A stretch of DNA of 64,000 bases, taken from contig CBDCMQ010000007.1 of assembly GCA_965219205.1 (NCBI GenBank), forward strand, positions 3,812 to 67,811, read 5' to 3'. The stretch's first letter is position 1. Each line of letters starts with the position of its first letter. Made by a program: the position numbers and the translations under genes. Source of the stretch: Dehalococcoidia bacterium. Its GTDB lineage: Bacteria > Chloroflexota > Dehalococcoidia > DSTF01 > WHTK01. Shown here piece after piece: positions 7,898 to 40,402 of the stretch. Below the pieces are notes generated by a model. That model saw only the letters and a program-made list of their open reading frames with translations. It was not told where the DNA came from and made no database searches.

Positions 7898-7908
7898 GGC
7901 AGCAGGCG

Positions 7909-8140: not shown

Positions 8141-8158
8141 CCAAAAGGAGGCCGGAAA

Positions 8159-9487: not shown

Positions 9488-9560
9488 CGGCAAGCGAAGC
9501 CGGACCGTATAGCCGCAAGCAAGGCCGCAGCACTTAGTTTCCAGGCCGATTGACAGCCAA

Positions 9561-9598
9561 GAGAAGCGCGACTTAACGGTCGCGCTTCTTTATTTATT
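9561..9598 (+). terminator. Rho-independent terminator-like hairpin + T tract (copy of 7861-7897)
   Basis: gagaagcgcgacttaacggtcgcgcttctttatttatt. Confidence 0.5.
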
Positions 9599-9610
9599 CG
9601 CAGTAGGCGT

Positions 9611-9705
9611 TTGAAAACTTCTCAGAGCGCCGTATAATGCCGCCAAGCTGCGAAGATTGCAGGTGCAACCTTAGCAACGCGTTTACAATCTTTCAAAGTA
9701 GGAGG
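9611..9705 (+). promoter_or_regulatory. Promoter (TTGAAA-16-TATAAT) and leader of paralog 5 with TTGCAggTGCAA dyad and TTTAG-box (cgtttacaatctttcaaagtaggagg)
   Basis: Direct sequence inspection. Confidence 0.45.
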
Positions 9706-9711
9706 CAGGAA

Positions 9712-11040
9712 ATGACAATCGCCTACCGCAACGAAGAGATGCTCAATATGGTCAGCAGTGAGACTGGCACCGTAGACCGGCGCATTTTCTCTGACAGGGA
9801 CATATACGAGCTGGAGCTCGAGCGTATCTTCGCCCGAGCCTGGAACTTCATGTGTCACGACTCCCAGATCCCCAATCCGGGCGATTTCTTCATGACAGTC
9901 ATCGGTGAAGACCGGGTCATCGTCGTCCGCGATGACGATGGCATGGCCCAGGTTCTGGTCAATACCTGCCGCCACCGCGGCAACGCGATCTGCCGGGCGG
10001 ACGAGGGCCACGCCACATCATTTATGTGCACCTACCACGGCTGGACCTACGACTTGAAAGGTGCGCTGGTTGGAGTGCCTGGCTTCAAAGAGGTCTACCA
10101 CGAGGAGCTCGACCGCGAAAATTGGGGGCTGATAAAGGCCGCCCAGGTGGATACCTACAAGGGCTTCATCTTCGCCAACATGGACCCCGAGGCTCCTTCT
10201 TTCCCCGACTACCTCGGCGAGGTCGGCCGCATGGCTCTCGACTCGATGGCGGAACGAGGCGATGAAATCACCATTCTCGGCGGTGTGCAGAAGTACACCA
10301 TCCCCTGCAACTGGAAGCTGGCCGCCGACAACGTCTGGGACTACTACCACGGCATCAGCCACCAGTCCGCCATGATGTCCGGCAGCTATGACGACGAAAG
10401 ATTGCGCAGTTGGGTTTACAGCAAAGATGACTACATGGTGATTCCGGGTGAGTACGGCCACGCCATCGGCGGACCGCAAATAACCGACCTGCAACAAGTC
10501 GCCATGGAGAAGCTCACTCAGATGCACGACTGGCGCGAACGTCCCCAGGCCAAGCAGGTGCTCGGCCCGGTTGGCATGAAGCACGCCGGCCATCCTCAGA
10601 TCTTCCCCAACTGTTGGCTCACCTTTGTCGGTCTCGGCCAAATCAGCATGCGCATGCCCAAGGGCCCCAACAAGACCGAGGTCTGGTGGTTCACCTTCGT
10701 CGACAAGAAAACGCCGGAAAAGCACCCCTTGCACCGGGGAATGGCGATCCACGTCTTCGGCCCCGCCGGCAGCCTCGAACAGGACGATGGCGAAAACTGG
10801 ACCCAGAGCACCATGGGCATGGTTGGCAAGGTAAGTGGGCGCTATCCGCTCAATTACTCGATGAACCTAGGCCGTGGCGAAATTATCAACGAAGAGGGCG
10901 GGCCGCCCCATATCTACTCTAAAGCCGTCAACGAGCATCCCCAGCTCTGGCACTACCGCGCCTGGGCCGATTGGATGGCCGCCGACAGCTGGGGCGAACT
11001 CAAGGCCAACCACACCCGGCTGCCCGACGACCGCCTGTAA
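9712..11040 (+). CDS. Rieske oxygenase alpha subunit, alpha-only type (paralog 5)
   Basis: MTIAYRNEEM start 7 nt after AGGAGG; same motifs. Confidence 0.85.
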   Translation: MTIAYRNEEMLNMVSSETGTVDRRIFSDRDIYELELERIFARAWNFMCHDSQIPNPGDFFMTVIGEDRVIVVRDDDGMAQVLVNTCRHRGNAICRADEGHATSFMCTYHGWTYDLKGALVGVPGFKEVYHEELDRENWGLIKAAQVDTYKGFIFANMDPEAPSFPDYLGEVGRMALDSMAERGDEITILGGVQKYTIPCNWKLAADNVWDYYHGISHQSAMMSGSYDDERLRSWVYSKDDYMVIPGEYGHAIGGPQITDLQQVAMEKLTQMHDWRERPQAKQVLGPVGMKHAGHPQIFPNCWLTFVGLGQISMRMPKGPNKTEVWWFTFVDKKTPEKHPLHRGMAIHVFGPAGSLEQDDGENWTQSTMGMVGKVSGRYPLNYSMNLGRGEIINEEGGPPHIYSKAVNEHPQLWHYRAWADWMAADSWGELKANHTRLPDDRL

Positions 11041-11167
11041 GCGGTCAGGCGCAGCCGACTGGCTATAGCCGGTCGGATGCTGCCCGATTACAAGCTGAAG
11101 ACGAGGGGAGCTGCCGGCGCATCTGCCCTCGTTTGATTCTCGCGAGGTTGCCTGGAGGCGAATCCTG

Positions 11168-11992
11168 GTGAATCGATCCCGGTTATCCGAATACATCGAA
11201 ACCAACCGCCGGTTCTGGGATGAAGCTGTCGCCATCCACGCCGCGTCGTCCTTTTACGATGTCGACTCTTTCAAGGCCGGAAAATCGACCCTCTTGCCGG
11301 TCGAGCGAGACGAAATGGGCGATGTCACCGGGAAAACACTCCTACATCTGCAATGCCATTTCGGTCTGGACACGCTTTCCTGGGCGCGAGAAGGGGCACT
11401 TGTGACTGGCGTTGACTTCGCACCCGAAGCGATCCGCACAGCTCAAGGTCTGGCGGAGGAACTCGGCATCAGCGCCCAATTCGTCGAATCCAACATTTTT
11501 GGCCTGCCGGAAGTCCTCGAGGGAAAGTTTGACCTGGTCTTTGCCTCCTACGGCGTGCTCAACTGGCTACCTGACCTGCGCGAATGGGCAGCCATTGTTG
11601 CCAACTACGTGAAGCCAGGCGGTACCTTCTACATCGTCGATTTCCATCCGCTCTACAACACGTTCTGGGATTCTCCCGCTTCAGACCAAGTCGCCATTCG
11701 CCATGGTTACTTCGGCACATCGGACCCGCCACCAACCGAAGAGTCAGGAACCTACGCGGACGGCGCGGCAAGTCTGACCAACCAGCGTACCTTTGAGTTT
11801 GACCACCCGTTGGGCGAGGTGGTCACGTCGCTAATCGACGCGGCTCTTCGGATTGAATTCTTGCACGAGTTCCCCTTCACCGCCTTTCAAGCATTGCCAG
11901 ACTTGCAGAAGGAGCGCGACGGTTACTTTCACCTACCGGCGGAGTCACCAAAAATCCCACTTATCTTCTCGCTGCGAGCGACGAAGCCGTAG
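11168..11992 (+). CDS. Class I SAM-dependent methyltransferase
   Basis: ..FDLVFASYGVLNWLPDLREW..VKPGGTFYIVD.. methyltransferase fold motifs. Confidence 0.65.
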   Translation: MNRSRLSEYIETNRRFWDEAVAIHAASSFYDVDSFKAGKSTLLPVERDEMGDVTGKTLLHLQCHFGLDTLSWAREGALVTGVDFAPEAIRTAQGLAEELGISAQFVESNIFGLPEVLEGKFDLVFASYGVLNWLPDLREWAAIVANYVKPGGTFYIVDFHPLYNTFWDSPASDQVAIRHGYFGTSDPPPTEESGTYADGAASLTNQRTFEFDHPLGEVVTSLIDAALRIEFLHEFPFTAFQALPDLQKERDGYFHLPAESPKIPLIFSLRATKP

Positions 11993-11996
11993 TTTT

Positions 11997-12431
11997 ATGG
12001 AGCCAGCCCAACCCGCAGCCTCAGTCGGAGTCTTGTTCGTCAATTCCAAGGGTGAACTGCTTCTCCATCTGCGTGACGACAAACCGGAAATCGCCAACCC
12101 AAATCTCTGGGGCTTCATCGCCGGCCGCTTGGAATCGGGCGAGACAGTAGAAGAGGCGCTTCTGCGCGAGGTGCAAGAGGAAATTGGCGTTCAGCTCCGC
12201 GAACACACTTTCTATTCCACTGTCGAAGAAGCCACGGGACCGCTAGACGTTTATAGCGCCCCGCTAGAGACTGAAGCTGAACAACTTGAACTCACCGAAG
12301 GCCAGAGAATTGCTTTTTTCACTCCTGAGAGTGCATTTGAGCTGCGGCTAGCTCCAGTCCTCGCGGAATTGCTTCCTGGCTTCCTTGCATCGGATGTCTA
12401 TGAACGGACGCGGCTGTTGAAAAAAACCTAG
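11997..12431 (+). CDS. NUDIX hydrolase
   Basis: Nudix box GRLESGETVEEALLREVQEEIGV (G-x5-E-x7-REVxEExGV). Confidence 0.8.
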   Translation: MEPAQPAASVGVLFVNSKGELLLHLRDDKPEIANPNLWGFIAGRLESGETVEEALLREVQEEIGVQLREHTFYSTVEEATGPLDVYSAPLETEAEQLELTEGQRIAFFTPESAFELRLAPVLAELLPGFLASDVYERTRLLKKT

Positions 12432-12508: not shown

Positions 12509-13000
12509 ATGCCCTACCCGATTCGCGAATTCGACCCGGACGAATACAACCGACGCTCGCAAACCGGCCCCTGCTTCATCTGCGCCATCGTCGCCGACGA
12601 CCCCGGCTTTGCGCACCACATGGTCTATGAGGATGAGACGGCAATCGCCTTTCTTGACCGCATGCCGACTCAATTCGGCTACGTGCTGGTGGCGCCGCGT
12701 GCCCACCTCGCACATGTAACCGGAGATTTCAGTTACGAGGACTATCTAAGTTTCCAAAGTGTGGTTTTTCGGGTCGCGGAGGCGGTGCGAGCCGAGCTCA
12801 AGCCCGAACGTCTCTATCTACTGTCACTCGGCAGCCAGCAGGGCAACAGCCACGTCCACTGGCACGTCGTACCGCTTCCATCCGGCGTGCCCTACGATCA
12901 GCAGCAACTCGCCACCTTGCACAAGAACGGGCGTGTCCTCGACATACCAGAGGCCGAGCTGGCAGCCCTCGCCGAGCGATTACGTGGCCGTCTCAATTAG
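12509..13000 (+). CDS. HIT (histidine triad) family protein
   Basis: HVHWHVVP histidine-triad motif near C-terminus. Confidence 0.75.
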   Translation: MPYPIREFDPDEYNRRSQTGPCFICAIVADDPGFAHHMVYEDETAIAFLDRMPTQFGYVLVAPRAHLAHVTGDFSYEDYLSFQSVVFRVAEAVRAELKPERLYLLSLGSQQGNSHVHWHVVPLPSGVPYDQQQLATLHKNGRVLDIPEAELAALAERLRGRLN

Positions 13001-13097
13001 AAAAAAGTGAGAGGCCAGTTTCACGGCCGCTCACTTCAAGGCCTTTCGGGCTTCGACTGCCTGGCGACGTGGCGACCGGCCCAGCGGCGCTTCGCCC

Positions 13098-13532
13098 TCA
13101 GGTCTCGATAGTATCAGACGAATCGACCGAGTCCGCATCGGGCTCCACGGTGTCCGCGGGTACCAAAAACTGCGTGTTCATTCGCATGCTGCTCTGAATA
13201 GCCTCTGTGTCTGGCAAAAGGGTTGAGCCAGAACCCTCGTCTCCTGTCAACCTGCCGTGCTCGTCAAGGTAGATGCCCTGAGTGGCAGCGTCTTGAAGGT
13301 TGTCGAGTTCGTGATCGCCCTGTGGCATCAAACCGTCGCTGGCTGGCGCGGTCTGTGCCTGGGAAATGGTTTCGTCGTCAGCGACGACATTATGCTCGCC
13401 CCAGGGGGCGGTTTTGCTGAACTCGTCAGCCTTCGGCAGGGCATCGCCCGTGCCGGAGGCGCTCGATTCCGTGGCGTCCACCTCTCCGGAGGTCTGACGG
13501 CTAAATGGTTTTTTCCAGTTCGGCGGCATCAA
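13098..13532 (-). CDS. Highly acidic low-complexity protein, paralog of upstream gene (unknown family)
   Basis: Starts MMPPNWKK, ends ..LTGDEGSGSTLLPDTEA..; ATGA overlap with upstream gene. Confidence 0.55.
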   Translation of the reverse strand: MMPPNWKKPFSRQTSGEVDATESSASGTGDALPKADEFSKTAPWGEHNVVADDETISQAQTAPASDGLMPQGDHELDNLQDAATQGIYLDEHGRLTGDEGSGSTLLPDTEAIQSSMRMNTQFLVPADTVEPDADSVDSSDTIET

Positions 13533-13999
13533 ACCGGCTCGCTGTCGGTCTCGTCGTAGATGACCACGGATTCGTCGTCACCACCGAGATCGTCCCCACC
13601 TGCTGGCATCTTGAGGAAGGACTCATGACCTCCGAGCGACTTGGTTTCCGGCAGCAAGGTCGAGCCGGCGTCGTCCCCGGTCAACTCGGGGTCCATACTC
13701 CGCGGCCCACCGGGGTCTTTGACCTCATCGGTGAACTCGGCGTCCATGCGCTGCGGCCCACCGGGGTCTTTGACCTCATCGGTGAACTCGGCGTCCATGC
13801 GCTGCGGCCCGCCGGGGTCTTTGACCTCATCGGTGAACTCGGCGTCCATCTTATTAATTGTGACGTTGCCATCGCCATCGGCCGCGTCGTCTACCGCCTG
13901 ACGGGTATCGGCCTGCATTTTGCCTTGCAGGCTATCGGGCTTGGCCGCATCATCGACACTCTCGTTTTTCTTGAAAATATTCCTGATCTTTGGCATCAT
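13529..13999 (-). CDS. Highly acidic protein with three perfect 17-aa repeats (MDAEFTDEVKDPGGPQR), unknown family
   Basis: Starts MMPKIRNIFKK with ATGA overlap onto stop of 13996-15588 gene; C-terminal ..LTGDDAGSTLLPETKS.. shared with next gene. Confidence 0.55.
   Translation of the reverse strand: MMPKIRNIFKKNESVDDAAKPDSLQGKMQADTRQAVDDAADGDGNVTINKMDAEFTDEVKDPGGPQRMDAEFTDEVKDPGGPQRMDAEFTDEVKDPGGPRSMDPELTGDDAGSTLLPETKSLGGHESFLKMPAGGDDLGGDDESVVIYDETDSEPV
13681..13850. repeat. Perfect 51-bp tandem repeat (about 3.3 copies) inside coding sequence
   Basis: gcggcccaccggggtctttgacctcatcggtgaactcggcgtccatgcgct repeated head-to-tail. Confidence 0.75.
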
Positions 14000-15588
14000 C
14001 GCACCGCCTTTTTGGAGATGGCTCCACTGTAACAGGCGTGTAAAGATTGTTGGGCGCGAACCTCGCGGATCGCCACCAGACCGCAAATCGTGGTTGGCAG
14101 AGGGTTCGGCCCTAAGGTCGCGACCAACTCCAGGGTCGATGGGTTGATCAAGATGATGGCACTGCTGGCCCGGTCGGCGATGATGATACCGCGGCCGACC
14201 CGCGCGATGCCACAGGGTTCGGCAGACTCCAGGCCCGCCACCTTGCCGAGGCTGTTGGTCGTCATGTCATCGACGACCAGCAATAACAGTTCGGTCTCGG
14301 CGACGATCAGGACGCGCTTGATCACCGGGTCGTAGCCGGCGGCGTCAATCCTACGGTCGAGATCGCCGACCTGCCGCAATGCACCCTCCTCCTCGATCAG
14401 CAGGATGGCTCCATCGGACTCGAAAATCAGCAGTCCAAGGCTCGCCACGACTGCCAGTCCAACCGCATCGACGCGTCGCTCCAACAAGCCAAGCGGCGTA
14501 CGATGGCCCGTCGCAACGTCCACATTGATAAGCAGCGAGACATCAGAGTTGGAGACGACGGCCAAAACGACCTGGCGGCGCACCACGACACCGGAGGGGA
14601 GCGGGACTCCGCGCGGCACGACGGCTAAAGGCGAGAAGACATCAGCCGTGCCTTCGCCGCTCACGTGAGATAGCGAGCCGTCTTCCGGCTGTAGCCGGAA
14701 GATTGTGCCGTCAGCACCACCGAACCCAACCAGATCAAAGCCTGGGTCCTCCGGGAAGACCAGTGGAGCCAGACTGGCGCTACCAAAAGCCACAGCGGCC
14801 GCACCAGTAAACGCCGTCTTCATGACTAGGCTGGAGCCCGCGTAGATACGCGATGAGTCGTAGAAGGCACGGCGCCCGATCTGCACCGGAGAGCCACGCC
14901 ATCCAGCCTGCCCCAAGACCCGCACAAACTGAACGTAGACGGCGAGCCCCGCGAAGGCCGCGCCGAGCAGCAGCCCCGTCTCGAAGCCATTCTGAATGGC
15001 GCTAGAAACCAGCACCGCGATCAATGAAACAACGGCCAGTCCGCCGCCGCCAACCGCGATTTGGCTGACTAGGCGCGCGGATTTCGCCGAAAGGCCGGCA
15101 AAACGCCGGCGGTCTGGCGCTGAAGCGAAACCGAAACGAAGCTCGCTGACCTGGTGTAACGGGATCGGTGGTGGCCTTGCCGATTGGTTTGGGCCCGGCG
15201 ACCCGCTGCGGTCGAAGCGCCGCCCGAGCGGGGTGAGCGACACTAAACTGCGTAGCTGAGTGAGTGCGGCTACTCCCAGGAAGATGCCGAAGACGACCGT
15301 GACCAGATCCGCCACCGCGAAGGAGCCATCGTCAGCAAGCTCGATGATCTGACCTATGATGCCGACAAGCGCGAATAGTGTTACTGCCAGGAACAGCAAG
15401 CGCAAACCGTGGCGGCGAAAGAAGCTGCGCGAGCCAAGCATGCGCGTTTGGTCAAAATCGAGATCAACCGACGAAGTCGGCCATCCCGATCGGTGCCCGA
15501 GGGCCTGTGCGACGCCGGCTGATCGCGCCCGGCAAAGCCGTTCGGCGATCAGACTGTTGCGCGACCGATCAGGCATCTTCCCTGTCAA
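13996..15588 (-). CDS. Membrane-anchored protein with C-terminal YVTN-type beta-propeller-like repeats (hypothetical)
   Basis: N-terminal TM helices, then four repeats of the type ..SNSDVSLLINVDVATG.. / ..ESDGAILLIEEEG.. / ..AIILINPSTLELVATLG. Confidence 0.5.
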   Translation of the reverse strand: MTGKMPDRSRNSLIAERLCRARSAGVAQALGHRSGWPTSSVDLDFDQTRMLGSRSFFRRHGLRLLFLAVTLFALVGIIGQIIELADDGSFAVADLVTVVFGIFLGVAALTQLRSLVSLTPLGRRFDRSGSPGPNQSARPPPIPLHQVSELRFGFASAPDRRRFAGLSAKSARLVSQIAVGGGGLAVVSLIAVLVSSAIQNGFETGLLLGAAFAGLAVYVQFVRVLGQAGWRGSPVQIGRRAFYDSSRIYAGSSLVMKTAFTGAAAVAFGSASLAPLVFPEDPGFDLVGFGGADGTIFRLQPEDGSLSHVSGEGTADVFSPLAVVPRGVPLPSGVVVRRQVVLAVVSNSDVSLLINVDVATGHRTPLGLLERRVDAVGLAVVASLGLLIFESDGAILLIEEEGALRQVGDLDRRIDAAGYDPVIKRVLIVAETELLLLVVDDMTTNSLGKVAGLESAEPCGIARVGRGIIIADRASSAIILINPSTLELVATLGPNPLPTTICGLVAIREVRAQQSLHACYSGAISKKAVR

Positions 15589-15824
15589 CTTCGGGAGTTT
15601 CTTTGGCCGCGTCTATAAAGAAGCTGGTGCTCGCGGCCAGCGGCGCAGCATCGGCAAGAAGGTCCGAGAGTTTCGCCCGGCCAAAGGCGAAGCCGCCTGC
15701 TGGATCGGCGCTGATCAGGGTCAAAACCTGAGATGGCTGATAGAAACGGCCCAGGTACCTGAGCAAGAGCCCGAAATCGAGTGCTGAACTGTCGCTCGGC
15801 GCCGCGAGCCCGAAGGCGGCGAGG

Positions 15825-25358: not shown

Positions 25359-26783
25359 TCACGCGGCCGGCAAACTCAGTCTGAAGGTCGTTCCCTCACC
25401 CAGCTTGCTCTCGACGGTGATCGAACCGCCGTGGGCCTCGGCAATCCAGCGGCAAATCGAAAGGCCGAGGCCGGCGCCGCCCTGCGCCCGTGAGCGGGCC
25501 TGGTCGACTCGAAAGAAGCGCTCGAAGACGTGCGGCAACTTGTCAGCAGCGATGCCCGGCCCCGTATCGGCGATGGATAATTCAATGCGGTTCCCGTCAG
25601 CCTTCCATGACATCCTGATTGAACCGCCGGCCTGGGTGTACTTGACCGCGTTGTCCAAGAGATTGAGCAATAGCTGCAGCATCAAGTCCTGGTCGGCAAG
25701 GATGTGAGCATCGGCGCCGGGCTCCACGGTCAGGCTTTGACCCTTCCGCGCCGCTGCCGGCCGCACACTCTCGATCGCGTCGGAAACCAGACTCTCGACG
25801 CTCAACTCCTCGCGATTGATCGGTATCCGCGCCGCATCGGCTCGCGCCAGAGTCAGCAGGCTTCCGACCAGCCGGATCAGGCGGTCTACCTCGGCGTTGA
25901 CCCGGCCGAGGACATCCCGATATTCCTTCGGGCTGCGATCCCACTGCAGGGCCACCTCGGTCTGACCTTTGATCGCCGTCAGCGGCGTGCGCATCTCGTG
26001 TGAGGCATCGGCCGTGAATTGGCGCTGACGCCGAAATGCCTCGTCAAGGCGCTCGATCATCTGGTCGAAAGTCGTGGCCAGCCGCCCGGCCTCGTCGTCC
26101 GGCAGGTCCAGCGCCAACCGCTGACTAAGGTCCTCCGCCCCTATCTGGCGCGCCATGCGTGTCACCGAGTCGATCGGTGCCAGCGCCCGTCCGGCCAAGA
26201 AGACCCCGCCACCGCTGGTCACGACCAACGCAAGCGGATAGGCGATAGCGATGATCACCAGGAGCGCGGTCAGAGTTTCGCGCGCGTCTTCGTCCGATAA
26301 ACCGACTTCAACAGCGCCGACAACGCCGGAGTCGGTCCGGATTGGCGCTGTGATCACTCGCAGACTCCCGTCCCCGGCCGCTGCGCGACGTGTAGTTCTG
26401 TTGCCGGCCAATGCCTCCTGAACCGCATTGGCATCAGTCGACGGACGATGCTCCTCGCCAGAATTGTCGAATATCAGCTGACCATTGGCGTCGTAAACAC
26501 GTGCGAATTCTTCCCCCTCACGCGGGTCACCGGGGATCGTAAGGCCGGCCGGCGCCAAGTCGCCATCTTCGATACTCAGAACGCGGATGATGCTAATTCG
26601 GCTCTGGATCGAGTCGTCCAGGCTTCTGTAAACACTCGCCTGTAAGGCCAAGTAGACGCCGCCGCTAAAAATCGCCAGCGTGACCGCCAGGATTACCATG
26701 TACCACAACGTCAGGCGGGCGCGGATCGAGGTGAAGCGGGGCACTCTAATCGTGCGGCCCGGCGGAGATTCGATAGCCCGCAC
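25359..26783 (-). CDS. Sensor histidine kinase (HAMP + HisKA + HATPase)
   Basis: H-box [15 protein letters not shown]-box [11 protein letters not shown]-box GGAGLGLSI. Confidence 0.85.
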
Positions 26784-27426
26784 CGCGCACGGTCTGAATC
26801 AATTTTGGCGCGATACCATCATCAATCTTCCGCCGCAGATTCTTGACGTGCACATCGATAACGTTGGTTGCGTTGTCGAACTCATAGCTCCACACGTGTT
26901 CAGCGATCGTCGTGCGAGTCAGCACCTGGTTTGGATGCCGCATCACATACTCCAGCAAAGCAAATTCCTTCGCCGTCAGGTCAATATCGCGGCCGGATCG
27001 AGTCACCCGCCGGGTCAGGGTGTCAATTACTAGGTCACCCACTCGCAACTCATTCCCGAGCAGCGCCGGGTCGCGCCGGCCCAACGCCCGAAGCCGGGCC
27101 AGAAGCTCGGCAAATGCAAACGGTTTGACCAGGTAGTCGTCAGCGCCCGAGTCTAGCCCGGTTACTCTATCCTCTACCGCGTCACGTGCCGTCAGCATCA
27201 AAATCGGCGTCTGCACACCCTGCTTACGCAGCCGCCGACAGACTTCAAACCCGTCGATCAGAGGCAGCATTATGTCAAGAATAATGACATCGAACTCAGC
27301 TACTCACGGCCACGCCTCAGCCTCGGCTCCGTCCGCCGCCGTATCGACGCTAAAGCCGTTCTCGGTCAGCCCGCGGGCGACAAAATCGGCGATTTGCGGT
27401 TCATCTTCAACAACCAGAACCCGCAT
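26746..27426 (-). pseudogene. OmpR-family response regulator interrupted by a single in-frame TGA (27305-27307), otherwise intact
   Basis: [65 protein letters not shown]...winged-helix C-terminus. Confidence 0.65.
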
Positions 27427-27527
27427 AGCCTCATTTTAGGCCCCGGTTCATGAACCGGGGATGAAGCTTCTAAATTTTGCTGGGGCTGGGCTTCCCGTCG
27501 AGGCGTCCGGTACCGAGTTCGCCGCCG

Positions 27528-28067
27528 CTAGCCGCGCGAGTCGTAATCTGCCCGGCTTAGTTCATAAACCACGACTTCCACCTCTTCGCCGTCCATCTCC
27601 TGGCGCCGCTCGGCGATCTGCTTCATGCCGGCCTTTTCCATCACCCGCCGGCTGGCAATGTGGTCCGGGAAGGTGTCCGCTTCCACAGCCTCAACCTCCG
27701 GCAGCGTGAACAGGTATTCGATCAGGCGCCGCGTGGCCTCCGTTGTGTACCCTTGGCCCCGCAACGACTCGACTAATGAGTAGCCGATGGAGGCCCGTGA
27801 GGCTTCTTTCCCCAGAGAGTAGCCCGCCTCGCCGATCAGCGCGTCGTCAGACTTTCGAATAATGAACCAGGGCGAGAAACCGCTGGTCTCGTTGCTACGC
27901 TCTCCGGCCAGCAGGTCCATCACCTCGAGCGAAAACTGGCTCGGATAGCCATCGGCCAGCGGCATGCCCTCGGGCATGCCGCTGGCCAGGAACGCCTTCG
28001 CCTCCTCCTGAGTGATCTGGCGCAGGCGCAGCCGTTCAGTTTCCAATTCTTCCATGGGGTCAGTCAA
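27528..28067 (-). CDS. GNAT family N-acetyltransferase (RimJ/RimL-like)
   Basis: 179 aa acetyltransferase fold motifs; overlaps amidase stop. Confidence 0.65.
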   Translation of the reverse strand: MTDPMEELETERLRLRQITQEEAKAFLASGMPEGMPLADGYPSQFSLEVMDLLAGERSNETSGFSPWFIIRKSDDALIGEAGYSLGKEASRASIGYSLVESLRGQGYTTEATRRLIEYLFTLPEVEAVEADTFPDHIASRRVMEKAGMKQIAERRQEMDGEEVEVVVYELSRADYDSRG

Positions 28068-29568
28068 CGCTGTTGGATGACATGTCGGCGGATGGTAGGA
28101 AACGCGGTGGCCGCCGAACCGGCGCCGCCTGCTCGAAGGCCCCAGCCAACCTCATCAGCTTCGCATCCTCACCGCCGCTGCCGAAGAAGGAAACTCCCAG
28201 CGACAAGCCGCGAAAGTAACCGGACGGCACCGTGACAATCGGATAGCGCGACAGGACCGCGGCTTGCCCGGTGCTGACCCGCGGTGGACTGTCACCGTTG
28301 ACCAGGTCGATCAAATGAGTAGGCGAGTTGCTCGGGGCGACTATCGCGTCGAGCTTATGCTCCGCCATCGGCGAGTCCATCGCCTGCCTCGCCGCAGAGG
28401 TGATGGCGTCCAGAGCGCTCAGGTACTCCTCGTCCTCCAGCGAGCCCGTCGCCTGGCTCTGCAGCAGCCTCTCCTGGCCATAAATCGGCATGACCCGGTC
28501 TGCGTTGGCTGAGTTGAATTCGATCAGCTCGTCCAGGTTGTGGACCGGCAAAGCTGGGTCGACTTCCGCCAGGTAATGGTTCAAGTCGGCCTTGAACTCA
28601 TAGTTCATCGCGGTCAGACCTTGATTTCGCAACTCATCCATCCCCTCGAAGACGATGTCATCCACTGTCTCAGCGCCCAGATCGCTCAGCACCCGAACGG
28701 CAGTGTCAAAAGTTCGATCGACATTGGGGTCGATACCTCGGCCCTCACTGGCCACACCGATCCGCACGCCCTTCAGGTTCGCAGGCGGCTGCATCGGCTC
28801 GAGCTTGGTCTCAGCGATCGCGTCCAAAATGATCGCGGCATCCGCGACACAGCGGGTCATCGGCCCGGCCGTGTCCAGCGTGTGGCTGATCGGTATGATC
28901 CCGGCCTGGCTTACCAGGCCAATCGTCGGTTTCACACCCACCAGCGAAGTGCGCGAGGATGGCGAGATTATCGAACCGTTGGTCTCGCTGCCGATCGCGG
29001 CGGTGCAGAGATTGGCCGCAACCGCTGCCGCCGACCCGGCGCTGGAACCGCTGGTGCTGCGATCGAGCGCGTAAGGATTTAGCACCTGGCCGCCGCGACT
29101 GCTCCAGCCGCTGGAAGACTTGGTCGAGCGAAAGTTGGCCCACTCGCTGAGATTGGCCTTGGCGAGGATTACGGCACCTGCCGCACGCAGCTTTGCGGCA
29201 ACGACGGCGTCCGTGGGCGCGTGCCAGCCCTCCAAGGCTAGCGAGCCCGCGGTAGTCATCATCTTGTCGCCGGTATTGATATTGTCCTTTAGCACCATCG
29301 GAACGCCGTGCAAGGGTCCGCGCGGACCGCGTTGCCGGCGCTCCTCGTCTAGAGCCGCGGCGATCTCTTGGGCGTCCGGATTAATTTCGATAATCGATCG
29401 CAATGTCGGCCCCGCCCGGTCAATTTCATCGATGCGCTGTAGATAGGTCCGCGTCAGCCACTGAGAGCTGATTTGGCCGGAACTCATGGCATCCTGGACT
29501 TCGGCAATCGTCGCTTCGAGCATCCCTTGCCCTCCGATCCTTCTAAGATATCGCCATTTCTCGTTCAC
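28060..29568 (-). CDS. Amidase (amidase-signature family)
   Basis: Gly/Ser-rich AS signature region ..STSGSSAGSAAAVAANLC.., 502 aa. Confidence 0.8.
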   Translation of the reverse strand: MNEKWRYLRRIGGQGMLEATIAEVQDAMSSGQISSQWLTRTYLQRIDEIDRAGPTLRSIIEINPDAQEIAAALDEERRQRGPRGPLHGVPMVLKDNINTGDKMMTTAGSLALEGWHAPTDAVVAAKLRAAGAVILAKANLSEWANFRSTKSSSGWSSRGGQVLNPYALDRSTSGSSAGSAAAVAANLCTAAIGSETNGSIISPSSRTSLVGVKPTIGLVSQAGIIPISHTLDTAGPMTRCVADAAIILDAIAETKLEPMQPPANLKGVRIGVASEGRGIDPNVDRTFDTAVRVLSDLGAETVDDIVFEGMDELRNQGLTAMNYEFKADLNHYLAEVDPALPVHNLDELIEFNSANADRVMPIYGQERLLQSQATGSLEDEEYLSALDAITSAARQAMDSPMAEHKLDAIVAPSNSPTHLIDLVNGDSPPRVSTGQAAVLSRYPIVTVPSGYFRGLSLGVSFFGSGGEDAKLMRLAGAFEQAAPVRRPPRFLPSADMSSNSVD

Positions 29569-29575
29569 GGCTTCC

Positions 29576-31366
29576 TCAGACTGCCGCGAATAGGTCCGTC
29601 TCCTTCATCTGATATTGATACCAACAGTTGAAAACAAACCATTGCCAGGCTTCCTTGTCCACTCGCTTTCGCCTGGTCCCGGCGTTCTTCTCCAGCCAGG
29701 CCATGTACTCGCCTTTGATGATGCCATCGTTAACCAGGACCTCAAGACTTGGGATCAGCATCCGTTGGAGCCAACCCGGCAGCGGCAGACCAGGAAAGCC
29801 GCGCTGCTCGCGTTGCTTAAAGTCGATCCCCAGTTGATCGCCAAAGCTACCTTGGAGCAGCAGCCTATTCTCACCCGACTCCAACCCGCGATGATTCGGC
29901 GGCACCGAGACGATGAAGGACGCGATCTGAGTGTCGAGGTATGGTGTTCGCTCATCGCAGCCCAGGAGCGGCGGTATGTACTGGTAGAAGAGGCTGGTCC
30001 GGTTCAAGGGGGCACGCAGACGCGCCGCCAGCGACAACGCCGGCACATCCTCCAATCCCTCTAGCAGGTCCCGGTTCGCTAGAGCTGCCTCGTCCCAGCC
30101 ACTCAAATCAGCCGGTTGCTTCAGGGCCCGGTTCATTTGCTCCGCATTCATGTATTTTGGTGGGCCAAACAGGACTCGCAGCGCTTCGTCTCGGGATTCG
30201 GCCAGGGCTGGTTCTAAGCTCCCCTCGTTCTTCATCCGCCGCACGCGGTCCATGGCGAATAGGGGAGTTCCGCCACTCAGAATCGAGTCGAAACCGGCCT
30301 CCGATGCGGCCTGCATTAGGAAGTACTCGCCGACCACTCGCGATCCCGCCTCAAAAGGCTCATCGATTTGGCGCATCAATCGCGACATCAGCTCAGGAGT
30401 GACCTCGGCCTCCGCATCGACCAGCAACGTACGTTGAGGCGAGTTCACGGCTTTCGCCACCCGTTCCGCCCACTGAATTTCGTACTCGCTTTCGTGGCCC
30501 TTGAAGGCCAAGGTTAAAGCCAAAGTGTTGGAGACGCCGTTTTCCTTCAGGGCAGCCAAGATCACTGAGGAATCAATGCCACCGCTAAGGAGTACTCCGA
30601 CGCCGGAAACACCGCCGACAGCCTGCTCGGTGGCTCGCAGGCTTTCGCTGCGCGCCCGTTTCACCCAATGTTCTAAATCCTCAGGACCGCTTTCCGGACT
30701 GGCTCGCCAGTAACGTCTGCTTTGCGTTTCTTCTGAGGTATAGATCCGGCACTCGGCCGCGCGGAGTTTGCGAACATTTTTCGCCGGGGTCAACGGCGCC
30801 GGCGTTGCGCTGATGCCCAAATTGAGTGCCAAACCTCGCTGATCCAGGCCCCGCGGCACAGCAGGATGCGCCAGCACTCCCTTGAGTTCGGTGGAAAACA
30901 CCAGCAGGCCGAGCTCCGGAGCCTCGTAAAAATAAACCAGTTTGTGGTCCATAGGGTCGCTGCTCAGATAGAGCACTTTTGGGCTTCGGTCCCAAAGGAA
31001 CAGGCTGAAAATGCCATCGAGTGCGGACGGAAATGCCTCCGCATTCTGCTCAAAGCTTGCCACGACTGCACCGGCATGTGGGCTCTTAAAAGACGACGCT
31101 CGCTCCCGGAGATGCGACGCGGTGTCATAGATGTCTCCGTCCACCGCCGCGACGAAAGCATCGTCCTCGTGCCCGGATGGAACGTCCTTGCGCTGAGCAA
31201 ATGTGGCGGTGTGGCAGTAGCCAACGGCAATTCCTTCGGCCGGATCCACGAATGTCTCGCGTCCATCCCGGGCTCGATGGCCGCTGACGCTCATCATTAG
31301 CTCAAGCGCTTCCGCTGAAGCCACGTCGGGATTTTCTCTACTCAGGATGCCGCAAATCAGGCTCAA
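29576..31366 (-). CDS. Asparagine synthetase B-like amidotransferase/ATP-pyrophosphatase homologue
   Basis: N-terminal ..LICGILSRENPD.. (Cys at position 5 from a TTG start), PP-loop SGGIDSS; 596 aa. Confidence 0.75.
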   Translation of the reverse strand: MSLICGILSRENPDVASAEALELMMSVSGHRARDGRETFVDPAEGIAVGYCHTATFAQRKDVPSGHEDDAFVAAVDGDIYDTASHLRERASSFKSPHAGAVVASFEQNAEAFPSALDGIFSLFLWDRSPKVLYLSSDPMDHKLVYFYEAPELGLLVFSTELKGVLAHPAVPRGLDQRGLALNLGISATPAPLTPAKNVRKLRAAECRIYTSEETQSRRYWRASPESGPEDLEHWVKRARSESLRATEQAVGGVSGVGVLLSGGIDSSVILAALKENGVSNTLALTLAFKGHESEYEIQWAERVAKAVNSPQRTLLVDAEAEVTPELMSRLMRQIDEPFEAGSRVVGEYFLMQAASEAGFDSILSGGTPLFAMDRVRRMKNEGSLEPALAESRDEALRVLFGPPKYMNAEQMNRALKQPADLSGWDEAALANRDLLEGLEDVPALSLAARLRAPLNRTSLFYQYIPPLLGCDERTPYLDTQIASFIVSVPPNHRGLESGENRLLLQGSFGDQLGIDFKQREQRGFPGLPLPGWLQRMLIPSLEVLVNDGIIKGEYMAWLEKNAGTRRKRVDKEAWQWFVFNCWYQYQMKETDLFAAV

Positions 31367-31389
31367 CCAATTTCTCTCTCTTTGTAATT

Positions 31390-31403
31390 TGGGACAATTG
31401 TCC
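31390..31403. promoter_or_regulatory. Perfect palindrome GGGACAATTGTCCC in divergent intergenic region (AsnB-like <-> Rieske 6), candidate operator
   Basis: Direct sequence inspection. Confidence 0.3.
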
Positions 31404-31582
31404 CGGACTAGACTAAGAGTTTATGACACTCACCGCGTCAGACCAGGATATTCGCCCGCAACCCAAGCCATGATGAAAAACCGCAAAACATCATTGACAC
31501 CCCAGCTATCATTCTCCTAGGTCATTTCCGATGACACCTGCTGGGCGGCACCTGATATGACGGTGATTGGAGAGAGCGTTTC

Positions 31583-32917
31583 ATGACCATCGCTTACCGC
31601 AATGAAGAAATGCGCCAAATGGTCAATCACGAAAATGGCACCGTTGACCGCCGGATTTTCAATGATCAGGAAATATACGGACTAGAACTTGAGCGTATTT
31701 TCGCGCGGGCCTGGAACTTCATGGCCCACGATTCGCAATTGCCCAACCCGGGCGACTTCTTCATGACCTTCATCGGCGAAGATCGTGTGATTTGCGTTCG
31801 TGACAACGATGGCAATCCTCAGGTGCTCGTAAACTCCTGCCGGCACCGAGGCAACGCCGTCTGCCGGGCCGAAGAAGGCCACGCCACATCGTTCATGTGC
31901 ACCTACCACGGCTGGACCTACGATCTAAAAGGTGATCTTGTAGGAGTACCTGGCTTCAAGGAGGTCTACCACGAGGAACTTGACCGCGAAAACTGGGGTC
32001 TGATCAAGGCGGCACAGGTGGGCACCTACAAGGGTTTTATTTTCGCCTGCATGGATGCGGAGGCCCCGGACCTCGATGACTTCCTCGGTGAAGTCGGCCG
32101 GATGAGCATCGACTTCATTGCCGAGCGCGGTAACATCGCCGCTGTCCCCGGCATCAGCAAATACACAATCCCCTGCAATTGGAAGTTCGCCGCCGACAAC
32201 GTCTGGGATTACTACCACGGCATCACCCACTCGTCCGCCGGGATGTCCGGTTTCATGAGCGGCGGCAATCGCAGTCGCACAATGACACCAGGATCCCTCT
32301 TCACGCGGCCCCAGATAACCATGCTCGGCGAGTACGGCCACGCTATCGGCGGACCCTCGTACAACGAAGCGACCGCAGAGGCCACCAGTCACTCCGCCTT
32401 TAGCGAGGACTGGCGCAAGCGGCCCGAAGCCCGACAGGCGCTCGGCCCAGCCGGACTCAAAATCCACGGCCACCCCCACGTCTTCCCCAACTTCTGGGTC
32501 ACGCAGTTCGCGCAGATCAGCTTGCGAATTCCCAAGGGACCCGATTCCACTGAGATTTGGTGGTGGACCTTTATCGAAACTGACGTGCCCAATGAAACGT
32601 CTAAGGCCCAACAGCGCCGATCCACCCACACTTTCGGCGCCGCCGGAATGCTGGAGCAGGACGATGGCGAAAACTGGGGCCAGAGCACGATGGGATCTAA
32701 GGGGGTAGCCAGCGGCCGCTATCCTTTGAATTACTCCATGAATCTTGGACGCGGAGAAGTAATCGACGATGAACTCGGCCCGCCGCGCATCGAAACAGAT
32801 GCGGTCACCGAGCACCCTCAGCTATGGCACTACCGCGCCTGGGCTGACTGGATGGCGGCCGAGAACTGGTCGGAACTCGTGACCAACCACACGCCGGTAC
32901 CGCGAGACTTGGTCTAG
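31583..32917 (+). CDS. Rieske oxygenase alpha subunit, alpha-only type (paralog 6)
   Basis: MTIAYRNEEM..CRHRGNAVCRAEEGH..CTYHGW; 444 aa. Confidence 0.85.
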   Translation: MTIAYRNEEMRQMVNHENGTVDRRIFNDQEIYGLELERIFARAWNFMAHDSQLPNPGDFFMTFIGEDRVICVRDNDGNPQVLVNSCRHRGNAVCRAEEGHATSFMCTYHGWTYDLKGDLVGVPGFKEVYHEELDRENWGLIKAAQVGTYKGFIFACMDAEAPDLDDFLGEVGRMSIDFIAERGNIAAVPGISKYTIPCNWKFAADNVWDYYHGITHSSAGMSGFMSGGNRSRTMTPGSLFTRPQITMLGEYGHAIGGPSYNEATAEATSHSAFSEDWRKRPEARQALGPAGLKIHGHPHVFPNFWVTQFAQISLRIPKGPDSTEIWWWTFIETDVPNETSKAQQRRSTHTFGAAGMLEQDDGENWGQSTMGSKGVASGRYPLNYSMNLGRGEVIDDELGPPRIETDAVTEHPQLWHYRAWADWMAAENWSELVTNHTPVPRDLV

Positions 32918-37139: not shown

Positions 37140-37527
37140 ACCTAGTTTCTGCCTTTGTCAGGGCCCCAGCTGTGACGGCGATCACCCTGCAGAAAAATCC
37201 TCCGCCAGATCGTCAGGCGCCTTGGCGTGATCGGACCCGGCCAAACCCGCAGCGACTCACCGAGAGGTACGGGGCGAACTCCACCCGTGCCTTTTCGTTT
37301 CAGAATGCCGTTTCCTAAGCCGTGCGGCCTCTCATAGACCGACTATCTGAAACCGTTCAAGAAGCACAGCGAGAATTTGGCCCTGGGGCGGTAGCCTCTT
37401 ACCGGCCGCCAAGCCAAAGGCGCAGTAAAGCCCGCGTAGCGGGCGACCCTTGACCGCCACAGACTCATTTACAATCATCATCATTGGATATCATCACTGG
37501 GAAATCGTGAATCAAAGGGGAATGACC

Positions 37528-38856
37528 ATGACCATCGCCGACCGCCACACTGAAATGCGCGGACTCGTGGACCCGGAAACTGCTTTGGTCGACCGCCGGA
37601 TCTTCTCTGACCAGGAGATCTATGAAATGGAATTGGAACAGATCTTCGCGCGCGCCTGGAACTTCATGTGCCACGACTCCCAGATCCCCAATCCGGGCGA
37701 TTTCTTCATGACAGTCATCGGTGAAGACCGGGTCATCGTCGTCCGCGATGACGATGGCATGGCCCAGGTTCTGGTCAATACCTGCCGCCACCGCGGCAAC
37801 GCGATCTGCCGGGCGGACGAGGGCCACGCCACATCATTTATGTGCACCTACCACGGCTGGACCTACGACTTGAAAGGTGCGCTGGTTGGAGTGCCTGGCT
37901 TCAAAGAGGTGTATCACGAGGAACTCGACCGCGAGAACTGGGGACTGATCAAGGCTAACACGATCTCCTACAACGGCTTTGTCTTCGCCTGCTTAGACCC
38001 AGAAGCACCAGAGCTTTACGACTACCTCGGTGAAGTCGGGCGCCTAAGCCTCGACTACCTTGCCGTCCGCGGGGAAATCCAAGTCGTTGGCGGCGTGCAG
38101 AAGTACACCATTCCCTGAAACTGGAAGCTCGCGGCCGATAACGTCTGGGACTACTACCACACAACTACCAGCCATGCGTCATCGATCGCCGCGCGTCCCA
38201 CCGGCAACCGCAGCGGTATGAGCATAATCCAGGACCCCAAACGCTTCACCCAACCTCACATAGTCATTCTTGGCGAATACGGCCACGCGATCAGTGGGTA
38301 CCACGTCACGCCGGACTCGGATTCCCTGGGCGCGATCAACGCTCGCAATGACGCCTGGCGCGAGACTCCGGAAGCCAAACGGGTTCTCGGGCCTGTGGGA
38401 GGCAGCCACGCCGGCCACCCTCACGTCTTTCCCAATATGTGGATGACGGGCAACCAAATCAGCATGCGCTTTCCCAAGGGCCCCACTACGACCGAAATCT
38501 GGTGGTTCACCCTTCTGCAGAAAGAGCTTTCTCCGGAAGACAGGAAAACCAAGGTTCAGGGAGCCAACCGCGCCTTCGGACCTGCCGGAATGCTGGAACA
38601 GGAAGACGGCGAAAACTGGGGCGAAAGCACCAAGGGATCTGGCGGAACTATCAGTTGCCGGTGGCCGCTCAATTATTCGATGAACCTCGGTCTGGGCACG
38701 GTAATCGATGACGAGACCGGCCCGCCCCATATCGAGACCCGGATTAACGAGCACGCCCAACTCTGGCTGTACCGCGCTTGGGCCGACTGGATGAGTGCAG
38801 ACAGTTGGTCCCAGCTCAAGGCCGACCACACTCCCGTCCCCCGGGACACGGTCTAA
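37528..38856 (+). pseudogene. Rieske oxygenase alpha subunit paralog 7 with single in-frame TGA (38116-38118) at the conserved Cys of TIPCNWK; otherwise intact
   Basis: MTIADRHTEM..CRHRGNAICRADEGH..TIP*NWKLAADNVWDYYH.. same frame continues to 38856. Confidence 0.7.
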
Positions 38857-39046: not shown

Positions 39047-40402
39047 AAAACCAGGCCGATAGCTGGAAAGGCTACATCACTGACCCTGCTAGGAAACCAG
39101 GAGAAAATCGTCGGTCTGGTCGACCCGGAAAAGGGCCTGGTGGACCGCCGCATCTTCTCCGACCAGGAGATTTACGACCTGGAACTTGAACAGATCTTCG
39201 CCCGCGCCTGGAACTTCATCTGCCACGACTCCCAGATCCCCAGCCAAGGCGATTTCTTCATGAGTTACATTGGTGAGGATCGTGTCATCTGTGTGCGGGA
39301 CAACGATGGCAACCCCCAAGTCCTGATCAACTCCTGCCGCCACCGCGGCAACGCGATTTGTCGGGCAGATGAAGGCCACGCCACCTCCTTCGTGTGCACC
39401 TACCACGGCTGGACCTATGATCTAAAGGGTGCGCTTGTCGGCGTGCCTGGCTTTAAAGAGGTGTACCACGAGGAACTCGACCGCGAGAACTGGGGCCTGA
39501 TCAAGGCCAGCGCTGTCTCCTACAAGGGCTTCGTTTTTGCCTGCCTCGATCCCGAAGCGCCCGAGCTCTACGAGTATCTCGGCGAAGTCGGACGCATGAG
39601 CCTCGACTACCTTGCCGTACGCGGCGAAATGGAAATAGTTGGTGGTGTGCAAAAGTACACCATCCCCTGCAACTGGAAGCTCCCCGTCGATAACGTCTGG
39701 GACTTCTACCACTCGACAACCACTCATTTTTCTTCAATCGCCGCGCGCCCCCCAGGTGTCACCACGATTCCAATCCACGATCCGACGCGCTTCACCCAGC
39801 CCCACGTCACCATCCTGGGTGAATACGGTCACGCCATCAGCGGCTACCAGCTTACGCCGGAATCAGAGTCGATTGGCGCCATAAACGCCCGCAATGACGC
39901 CTGGCGCCAGGAACCCGAAGCCAAGCGAATCCTCGGCCCGGTTGGCAGCAGCCACGCCGGACACCCGCACATCTTCCCCAACATGTGGATAACCGGAAAC
40001 CAGGTCAGCATGCGCTTCCCAAAGGGCCCCGCGAAGACCGAGATTTGGTGGTTCTGCCTTCTGCAGAAGGAACTCTCTGCGGCGGAACGCCAGGCCAGAC
40101 TGACCAACGCCAACCACGCATTCGGACCGGCCGGCATGCTGGAGCAGGAAGACGGCGAAAACTGGGGCGAAAGCCCCAGGGGCGCTATCGAGACCATCAG
40201 CCGCCGCTGGCCGCTCAATTACTCAATGAACCTCGGCCGCGGCACCGTGATCGATGACGAAACCGGCCCCCCCACGTGTCGAAACTCGGATCAACGAGCA
40301 CGCTCAGGTCTGGCTCTACCGCGCCTGGGCCGACTGGATGGGCGCCGATGGTTGGGACCAGCTCAAGACCAACCATACGCCTGTCCCGCGAGACGTGGTG
40401 TA
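39047..40402 (+). pseudogene. Rieske oxygenase alpha subunit paralog 8: 5' end replaced (no MTIAYR start) and +2 frameshift near 40272-40280
   Basis: ..QEKIVGLVDPEKGLVDRRIF.. without start; ..GPPTCRNSDQ.. instead of ..GPPHIETRINEHAQ; correct C-terminus readable in another frame to 40402. Confidence 0.65.

Follow-up and report, generated by a model that had tools for sequence, protein, structure and literature searches.

A Cys-less AsnB-like protein encoded with a Pam-like amidase and a GNAT in Dehalococcoidia: a possible split amidotransferase

We analysed a stretch of 64,000 nucleotides from a Dehalococcoidia bacterium (contig CBDCMQ010000007.1; hereafter the window), with a focus on a gene encoding a protein related to the asparagine synthetase AsnB. 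This gene is the first of three open reading frames (ORFs) that follow each other in the same direction on the minus strand. A Rieske oxygenase gene lies divergently on the plus strand, across a gap of 216 bp (31367-31582). The ORF list and the Pfam domains delimit the following genes:

29576-31366, minus strand: AsnB-like protein of 596 aa with a TTG start (ORF list; Pfam PF13537 and PF00733, i.e., Asn_synthase with GATase_7/6)
28060-29523 (487 aa, ATG start) or 28060-29568 (502 aa, GTG start), minus strand: amidase-signature amidase similar to the peptide amidase Pam (PF01425, 280 bits)
27528-28055 (175 aa, ATG start) or 27528-28067 (179 aa, TTG start), minus strand: small GNAT N-acetyltransferase, RimJ/RimL-like, Acetyltransf_3 (PF13302)
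31583-32917, plus strand: Rieske oxygenase alpha-subunit gene (Pfam Rieske and Ring_hydroxyl_A)

A first-pass annotation of this DNA had described the three minus-strand genes at these coordinates, had named them AsnB-like, amidase and GNAT, and had placed the Rieske gene divergently from them across 216 bp. The ORF list and Pfam bore out this layout and the gene identities. The same annotation claimed that the genes overlap, which holds for one pair at most. The AsnB-like and amidase genes are separated by 7 nt if the amidase starts at the GTG at 29568, and by 52 nt if it starts at the ATG at 29523. The ATG is the better-supported start: a GGAGG precedes it by 7 nt, and three related assemblies place the start there as well. 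The amidase and GNAT genes overlap by 8 nt only with the TTG start of the latter (28067); with the ATG at 28055 there is a gap of 4 nt. The N-terminus (M)SLICGIL, read from the TTG start of the AsnB-like gene, is present in the sequence as described. A Shine-Dalgarno-like GAGAGAG (31374-31380, minus strand) precedes this TTG by 8-14 nt, and the AsnB-like paralogues and orthologues have a start codon (TTG, ATG or GTG) at the same position with a GAGAG-type element at the same distance. It follows that the start is correct, and that MSLICGI is the real N-terminus of the protein.

The AsnB-like protein belongs to the AsnB superfamily at the level of the fold: it has an N-terminal nucleophile (Ntn)-type N-domain and a PP-loop ATP pyrophosphatase domain with the SGGxDS motif. 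Judged from its sequence, it is clearly not a housekeeping asparagine synthetase. Its NCBIfam scores were 141.5 bits for TIGR01536 (cut-off 267.1), 129 bits for the XrtA amidotransferase model (cut-off 817), 92.4 bits for TIGR03104, the amidotransferase of N-acetylglutaminylglutamine amide (NAGGN) synthesis (cut-off 570, still among the best matches), 85.8 bits for the lasso peptide cyclase NF033535 (cut-off 525), and 48.8 bits for AsnB itself (PRK09431/NF006949, cut-off 499), all of them below the cut-off. The first-pass annotation had made its reading depend on the protein being distinct from housekeeping asparagine synthetases, and the scores far under the cut-offs of TIGR01536 and PRK09431 agree with it on this point.

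Close relatives of the protein are few. A search of 5.8 billion proteins retrieved around 28 clusters at 33-99% identity, below which the scores fell abruptly: searched with the single sequence they dropped from 296 to 122 bits, and with a family profile from 406 to 225 bits. An exhaustive HMMER search of 1.84 billion representatives added around 30 full-length relatives. Among the 241 million records of the JGI metagenomes there was no member closer than 33% identity. Of the 1.84 billion proteins, we estimate that around 45 represent this group, whose members lack the catalytic Cys of AsnB; they come from Dehalococcoidia, Acidobacteriota and other groups. These comparisons place the AsnB-like protein of the window in a rare, uncharacterised Cys-less ("Ser2") clade.

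The position of the missing Cys is best seen from the N-terminal register. Canonical AsnB relatives start with MCGI[C/A]GI, and the first-pass annotation had proposed that Cys5 of MSLICGIL acts as the glutaminase nucleophile once a short propeptide has been removed. In MAFFT alignments it is Ser2 that sits opposite the catalytic Cys. The hidden Markov models (HMM) gave a compatible register, with residue 4 at position 3 of TIGR01536, residue 1 at position 1 of PRK09431, and residue 2 at position 2 of TIGR03108. Counted from the N-terminus, His30 of the HRGPD motif (HR(G)xD) is spaced identically in the AsnB-like protein and in the database homologue P0029, and also in the E. coli AsnB sequence, which serves as a guide only. 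In the AlphaFold2 model the first strand begins at residue 2, which is not independent evidence because the underlying alignment already sets Ser2 opposite the Cys. The more distant relatives in the clade decide the matter. A second Cys-less AsnB-like gene in the window (49161-51029) begins with MSTIFGIF, to be compared with MCSIFGVF in E. coli. Other N-termini in the clade are MSGICGI, MSGIVGI, MGGIAGI, MSGFSGI and MTLICGI, and several have no Cys at all. At position 2, 36 of 43 clade members have Ser, three have Gly, and one each has Thr, Ala, Gln or Pro; none has Cys.

The glutamine site is lost beyond the nucleophile. Arg49, Asn74-Gly75-Glu76 and Asp98 (E. coli numbering) are the residues by which ASNS and AsnB recognise glutamine and keep the thioester stable (PMC6748925), and this whole network is replaced in the AsnB-like protein: RLSIID by HTATFAQ, NGEIYN by DGDIYD, and (S/T)D(S/T)E by PHAGAV. 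The motifs RLSIID and NGEIYN were found in none of the 43 clade members, against all 12 of the canonical proteins that rank just below them. The PP-loop S[GA]Gx[DE]S was kept in 39 of the 43, and reads SGGIDSS in the AsnB-like protein. With the glutamine-binding residues gone, neither register allows the protein to be a glutamine-dependent amidotransferase, and glutaminase activity is to be expected in neither. The propeptide thereby loses its purpose, and the proposal of a Cys5 nucleophile is disfavoured by the Ser2 register (HMM, MAFFT and His30 spacing), by the Cys-free relatives and by the loss of all glutamine-site residues. The protein resembles AsnB and ASNS in its two-domain fold, its PP-loop SGGxDS, its length and its spacing between the N-terminus and HR(G)xD, and differs from them by the Ser in place of Cys, the replaced glutamine network, a GDGGDE-FGGY block that is not conserved, and HMM scores below the cut-offs.

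The AlphaFold2 model of the protein has the AsnB fold and scored high (predicted local distance difference test, pLDDT, 94.3; predicted template modelling score, pTM, 0.94). Foldseek matched it to the following structures, where the ranges of template modelling (TM) scores cover both normalisations, by the length of the query and by that of the target:

7YLZ, hydroxyamidotransferase TsnB9 (best match): TM 0.74-0.77
1JGT, beta-lactam synthetase: TM 0.54-0.69
6GQ3, human ASNS: TM 0.60-0.71
1CT9, E. coli AsnB: TM 0.59-0.71
1Q15, carbapenam synthetase: TM 0.52-0.71

TsnB9 was also the only clear sequence match in PDB (50 bits, identity around 16%), which makes it the best match in both sequence and structure among solved structures. 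The N-domains of TsnB9 and FzmA handle donors other than glutamine, i.e., glutamyl-hydroxamate and glutamyl-hydrazine, and the fosfazinomycin pathway, to which FzmA belongs, also includes an amidase and an N-acetyltransferase (10.1101/365031). The differences are that TsnB9 and FzmA both keep the catalytic N-terminal Cys, that the identity is low, and that the glutamine-synthetase-like and lyase cassette genes are not found at the locus.

The presence of beta-lactam and carbapenam synthetases, structural neighbours at TM 0.55-0.61, among the best Foldseek matches raises the possibility of a ligase or cyclase that needs no ammonia: the AsnB-like protein would link a carboxyl group, once adenylated, with an amine in the substrate, and the amidase and the GNAT would serve for tailoring or self-protection in a small natural-product or peptide-modification pathway. 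To our knowledge, all characterised Cys-less AsnB homologues are such ligases or cyclases. Like beta-lactam synthetase, carbapenam synthetase and the lasso cyclases, the protein combines the AsnB fold and an intact ATP site with the lack of a glutaminase nucleophile. Its conserved and remodelled N-domain could bind a substrate or a partner, the tandem gene pairs found in the clade (see below) hint at hetero-oligomers, and a gene with a class-A-like beta-lactamase fold is a constant upstream neighbour. Yet phmmer against PDB (E ≤ 1e-3) found no match of the AsnB-like protein to beta-lactam synthetase or CarA, the score for NF033535 is far below its cut-off, the paralogues have no common partner gene, and the N-domain is conserved here, not degenerate. 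We searched the neighbourhood for the partners of a lasso peptide, or of another peptide that is ribosomally synthesised and modified post-translationally (RiPP), and found no transglutaminase-like or PqqD-like protein, no lasso B protein or RiPP recognition element (RRE), no precursor peptide and no other biosynthetic enzymes nearby. A lasso-peptide or RiPP cluster was therefore rejected, and we regard a ligase or cyclase of this kind as rather unlikely. A role in anti-phage defence was also rejected, as PADLOC gave no match.

The amidase is easier to place. It scored 564.3 bits against NF006006 (PRK08137), above the cut-off of 534, and aligns over its full length, with around 50% identity, with the peptide amidase Pam of Stenotrophomonas maltophilia (1M21/1M22, E 4e-109; 5AC3). 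It keeps the LKDN, GSSAGS and ETNGSI motifs of the Ser-cisSer-Lys triad, which is Ser226/Ser202/Lys123 in Pam (PMC11732141). The next-best relatives of solved structure are GatA subunits, with a much lower similarity (166 bits). We saw no N-terminal signal-like extension in the sequence of the amidase, which is predicted to be a cytoplasmic homologue of Pam. Pam has an absolute regioselectivity for peptide C-termini (PMC9155641); from the identity to Pam, a specificity for the C-terminal carboxamides of peptides would be expected for the amidase of the window too. The GNAT matched PF13302 with 82.7 bits (cut-off 25.4, residues 12-149), had no equivalog-level assignment in NCBIfam, and showed weak PDB and NCBIfam matches to ribosomal-protein and aminoglycoside acetyltransferases. 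Pam-type enzymes also accept N-protected amino acid amides. We know of no description of an AsnB-like gene in the context of a Pam gene. A literature search for the combination of AsnB-like, amidase and GNAT genes found nothing.

The order and direction of the three genes are kept in four lineages of Dehalococcoidia. The first comprises the window and its near-twin (locus L092), which has the same trio. The second is represented by the closest relative in the species-level collection, a metagenome-assembled genome (MAG; OZ252017.1, locus L001) whose AsnB-like protein is 89% identical to that of the window. In the third (L086) this identity is 80%, and in the fourth (L133/L134) it is 90%, with 87% for the amidase. 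The spacing between the synthetase and amidase genes is constant across the lineages (51-55 nt). Thioredoxin-reductase-like, DsbD-like and class-A-like beta-lactamase-fold genes are found upstream throughout, and a pair of response regulator and histidine kinase genes downstream. Among the roughly 130 AsnB-like loci that we fetched, homologues of the amidase and the GNAT were found only in the orthologous loci. The operon proposed by the first-pass annotation is plausible in view of this conservation of order and direction, and the three genes may well be co-transcribed.

These observations can be combined in a split amidotransferase, made of the synthetase and the amidase and acting on a small peptide-like molecule that the GNAT N-acetylates. 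The AsnB-like protein would be an ATP-dependent, carboxylate-adenylating amide synthetase with an intact PP-loop ATP pyrophosphatase site and no ability to hydrolyse glutamine. As GatA does for GatB, the Pam-like amidase would supply ammonia, in place of the dead glutaminase domain. With this ammonia the synthetase would amidate the adenylated carboxyl of a small molecule resembling a peptide or an amino acid, of which the GNAT would acetylate the amino group. GatA already shows that an amidase-signature enzyme can provide ammonia for an ATP-dependent partner separate from it. For the synthetase, Boehlein et al. (1994) reportedly showed that E. coli AsnB, when mutated to C1A or C1S, loses the glutamine-dependent activity and keeps the ammonia-dependent one. 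As loss of Cys1 abolishes the use of glutamine but spares synthesis from ammonia, an external supply of ammonia or amine is expected for the AsnB-like protein. The safest inference is thus that it is an ATP-dependent amide synthetase using ammonia or an amine from outside its own N-domain. We prefer the split amidotransferase because the neighbouring amidase releases ammonia from terminal carboxamides, and the conservation of the trio in four lineages while the flanks change speaks for it. Our analysis establishes the gene identities, the missing glutaminase residues, the kept PP-loop, the fold and the conserved trio; from these we infer the co-transcription of the genes, the hand-over of ammonia, the nature of the substrate and the acetylation of that same molecule. 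We put this reading forward tentatively, as a possibility that falls well short of probable. In more general terms, the trio probably serves to form or trim an amide on a small molecule resembling a peptide. Our best guess, made with low confidence, is that an ATP-dependent amide synthetase either takes ammonia from the neighbouring amidase or opposes it, on a small N-acetylated substrate of this kind.

Several observations weigh against a split amidotransferase. Within the family, mean pairwise identity is 56% for the N-domain (residues 1-200) and 43% for the synthetase domain; the higher conservation of the former suits a domain with an activity of its own better than a dead domain. In the synthetase domain of the AsnB-like protein, the canonical GDGGDE-x-FGGY block is not conserved. 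Its paralogues, which are around 50% identical and equally Cys-less, have no amidase nearby; their varied contexts, with no shared neighbour, indicate that the amidase partners this orthologue group and not the whole clade. The amidase family itself is very common (more than 8000 homologues at E<1e-60), and the amidase has no special feature that would hint at the formation of a complex. Finally, the two enzymes would run a futile cycle if they acted on the same carboxamide.

The conservation of the N-domain could mean that it is a still-catalytic Ntn-type hydrolase, using either Ser1 after removal of Met or Cys5 after removal of MSLI, and freeing ammonia or another N-nucleophile from a donor other than glutamine, as TsnB9 and FzmA do. 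The prevalence of Ser at position 2, with a mostly small residue otherwise, the frequency of Cys5 in the clade, the tblastn alignments that in some cases match Cys5 with the canonical Cys, and the non-glutamine donor of the best structural match, TsnB9 (10.1101/365031), are in line with this. They have to be set against the clade members that have neither Cys (MSTIFGI, MSGIVGI, MGGIAGI and MSGFSGI), those with Gly (three) or Ala (one) at position 2, the replacement of the oxyanion-hole residue Asn74, and the N-terminal Cys that TsnB9 and FzmA retain (10.1101/365031). We know of no class II amidotransferase with a Ser nucleophile, and find a catalytic N-domain improbable.

The motifs that replace the glutamine site (CHTATFGQ, VDGDIYD and LDGxFSLFLWDR) are themselves conserved within the family. 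Together with the constraint on the N-domain, this argues that the domain was remodelled under selection, and not left to decay. In a broader version of the same idea, the Ntn domain of the clade, with its conserved N-terminal Ser and a new conserved pocket, would have been re-tooled either into a Ser-Ntn hydrolase for a non-glutamine nitrogen donor or into a dock for a separate amide hydrolase, which at this locus would be the Pam-like amidase. We consider such re-tooling quite unlikely; if true, amidotransferases could be built in a way that is new, and a new small N-acetylated amide metabolite would probably come with it.

Another view is that the genes share no pathway and are mere neighbours, or that the AsnB-like protein has no catalytic activity and is a pseudoenzyme. 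The degenerate GDGGDE block is in line with this, the synteny of the trio was seen only among close relatives (80-99% identity of the AsnB-like proteins), and the other paralogues have unrelated neighbours. Nevertheless, order and spacing were kept in four lineages amid rearrangement of the flanks, the AsnB-like protein is under strong purifying selection along its whole length, and its PP-loop and other residues of the synthetase domain are invariant. The absence of a shared pathway, or of catalysis by the AsnB-like protein, is in our opinion improbable.

The trio also recalls the NAGGN operon asnO-ngg-peptidase (PA3459-PA3461), whose product is an N-acetylated C-terminal amide (PMC8070244). 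In both cases an AsnB-like amidating enzyme, a GNAT and a hydrolase are encoded in one operon. By the same logic, the trio could be a module for the synthesis and turnover of a small N-acetylated carboxamide, e.g., a compatible solute: the GNAT would acetylate an amino acid or peptide, the AsnB-like protein would amidate its carboxyl with free ammonia, and the amidase would degrade the product when it is not needed. The latter role suits the hydrolysis of peptide C-terminal amides by Pam-type enzymes (PMC11732141, PMC9155641). TIGR03104 is among the best NCBIfam matches of the AsnB-like protein, though far under its cut-off (92 against 570 bits), and one paralogue adjoins three GNAT genes. The analogy weakens in the details: AsnO depends on glutamine, which it uses via its Cys and which the AsnB-like protein cannot use; Ngg is a large bifunctional GNAT-ligase, of which the GNAT of 175-179 aa lacks the ligase half; and the hydrolase of the NAGGN operon is an M42 peptidase, a different family from the amidase-signature enzymes. 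The many paralogues per genome are also hard to square with a single osmolyte. We judge such a module unlikely.

Unusual chemistry of amides, lactams, hydroxamates and hydrazides has come repeatedly from enzymes with the AsnB fold. A clade with Ser in place of the universal Cys, and yet with its N-domain under the stronger constraint, is a well-defined target for enzymology, all the more so since its genes have multiplied within genomes and form tandem pairs. How nitrogen could be delivered without a glutaminase site is a question to which the conserved association with a homologue of peptide amidase offers a directly testable answer. In practical terms, the annotation "asparagine synthase (glutamine-hydrolysing)" given to these proteins in these Chloroflexota genomes cannot be right.

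The contexts of the other clade members are diverse. Several AsnB-like paralogues are encoded on the same contig, often as tandem pairs. An all-against-all BLAST of the paralogue neighbourhoods gave no shared neighbour gene. The contexts include:

L081-83: AsnB-like paralogues standing alone
L084 10001-13603, L088 5975-9791 and L089 6190-9947: head-to-tail tandem pairs of Cys-less AsnB-like genes
L002 10001-14244: tandem pair of Cys-less AsnB-like genes in an Acidobacteriota MAG
L090: three GNAT-like genes (12537-15674) directly upstream of AsnB-like paralogue P0016, with a Rieske gene beyond them
L091: AsnB-like paralogue followed by an alpha/beta hydrolase gene

The three GNAT-like genes of L090 are paralogous and encode proteins of 300-330 aa, two of which are 58% identical. 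In L084, a 64-aa ORF, a GT4 glycosyltransferase gene and a PIG-L deacetylase gene (MshA/MshB- or BshA/BshB-like) lie divergently from the tandem pair (7466-9766). We considered a ligase, acetyltransferase and amidase logic of the mycothiol or bacillithiol kind, and rejected it since this GT4 and PIG-L context was seen only once, in L084, and not in the window. The second AsnB-like gene of the window (49161-51029, plus strand) encodes a protein of 622 aa, 28% identical to the first, with the PP-loop SAGVDS. Its neighbours (48128-49045, 51174-52295 and 52518-56086) encode a luciferase-like monooxygenase, a GFO/IDH/MocA oxidoreductase and two ATP-binding cassette (ABC) exporter proteins. The window also has a second amidase-signature amidase (62094-63491, minus strand, 465 aa), 34% identical to that of the trio.

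The model that follows from the first-pass annotation joins the amidase, the GNAT and the Rieske oxygenase to a glutamine-dependent amidotransferase, for the processing of an amide or amine that may be aromatic; a palindromic operator would control the genes. The window contains at least 11 Rieske alpha-subunit paralogues that are 52-67% identical to the one at 31583-32917, for example:

493-1869, 2112-3440, 6384-7712, 8159-9487, 9637-11040, 37450-38853 and 56243-57607: Rieske paralogues
around 39080-40400 and 59431-60781: Rieske paralogues apparently broken by frameshifts

With so many copies scattered over the window, adjacency to one of them is expected by chance and carries little weight. 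In L086 the Rieske gene is reduced to a remnant of 42 codons (7688-7813; residues 403-444, 90% identical), located upstream of the AsnB-like gene and beside a major facilitator superfamily (MFS) transporter gene, which records a recent deletion of the oxygenase. In L133/L134 there is no Rieske gene, and the beta-lactamase-fold gene is directly followed by the AsnB-like gene. The gene is thus missing from two of the four lineages while the trio is retained, and the functional link to the oxygenase, or to an aromatic substrate, was rejected.

The proposed operator did not fare better. A perfect 14-nt palindrome, GGGACAATTGTCCC, is indeed present in what is presumably the 5' leader of the AsnB-like gene, at 31391-31404, not at 31390-31403 as the first-pass annotation had it. 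It could form an RNA hairpin of 5 bp (fold of -13.8 kcal/mol, z of -2.5), and Rfam matched no riboswitch or other known RNA family in the leader region. Perfect palindromes of 14 nt are statistically ordinary in this DNA (13 in the window, around 5 in shuffled sequences), and no second copy of GGGACAATTGTCCC was found upstream of another gene in the window. It is kept in L001, where the whole intergenic region is nearly identical to that of the window, and absent from L086 and L133. An operator conserved only between near-identical regions, with no other copy in the window, was not retained. The divergent layout and the palindrome in the window, L092 and L001, and the wealth of Rieske paralogues in the genome, speak for the original model as a whole. 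Against it stand the absent glutamine site, the lineages (L086 and L133) that kept the trio without the Rieske gene and the palindrome, and the little that either the palindrome or the Rieske adjacency can tell. It is largely refuted, and we regard it as very improbable.

The promoter-like strings reported in the intergenic region exist (TTGACA at 31494-31499, TCATTCT at 31509-31515, the latter including CATTCT at 31510-31515). With only 10 nt between TTGACA and CATTCT, they cannot be paired as a promoter of the sigma-70 type, and neither was reported by our promoter scan. Both lie in a block, ATTGACACCCCAGCTATCATTCTCC (31493-31517, plus strand), that is conserved in the window, L001 and L086. 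In L086 the block TTGACA...ATCATTCT adjoins the Rieske remnant. Most likely, this block belongs to the 5' region of the Rieske gene, with which, or with the remnant of which, it travels. For the trio, inspection revealed an extended -10-like element that the promoter scan did not report:

31418-31428, minus strand: extended -10-like element TGTCATAAACT, around 50 nt upstream of the AsnB-like start

CATACT-like elements are found at the same distance upstream of the AsnB-like paralogues.

Some of the loci show disrupted genes. In the long-read MAG OZ252017.1 (L001, 10001-13326), frameshifts break up the ORFs of the AsnB-like protein and the amidase, and in L092 (around 11700-11815) the C-terminus of the AsnB-like protein is frameshifted relative to the window. 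The version of the window fits the family consensus, and the frameshifts in L001 and L092 are therefore probably assembly errors. Directly after the GNAT gene, the gene for an OmpR-type response regulator (26746-27425, minus strand) has an in-frame stop after around 36 codons. It is also shortened in the near-identical L092 and is intact (224 aa) in L133/L134, where genes for an SRPBCC protein (Polyketide_cyc2) and a TetR-family regulator that are not found in the window lie between it and the GNAT gene (11111-12297). In the window, a perfect 20-nt palindrome, CCCCGGTTCATGAACCGGGG (27441-27460), lies 68 nt after the GNAT stop codon and before the start of the response regulator gene. It forms a stable hairpin with no T-run, and is a candidate for the hairpin that ends the operon.

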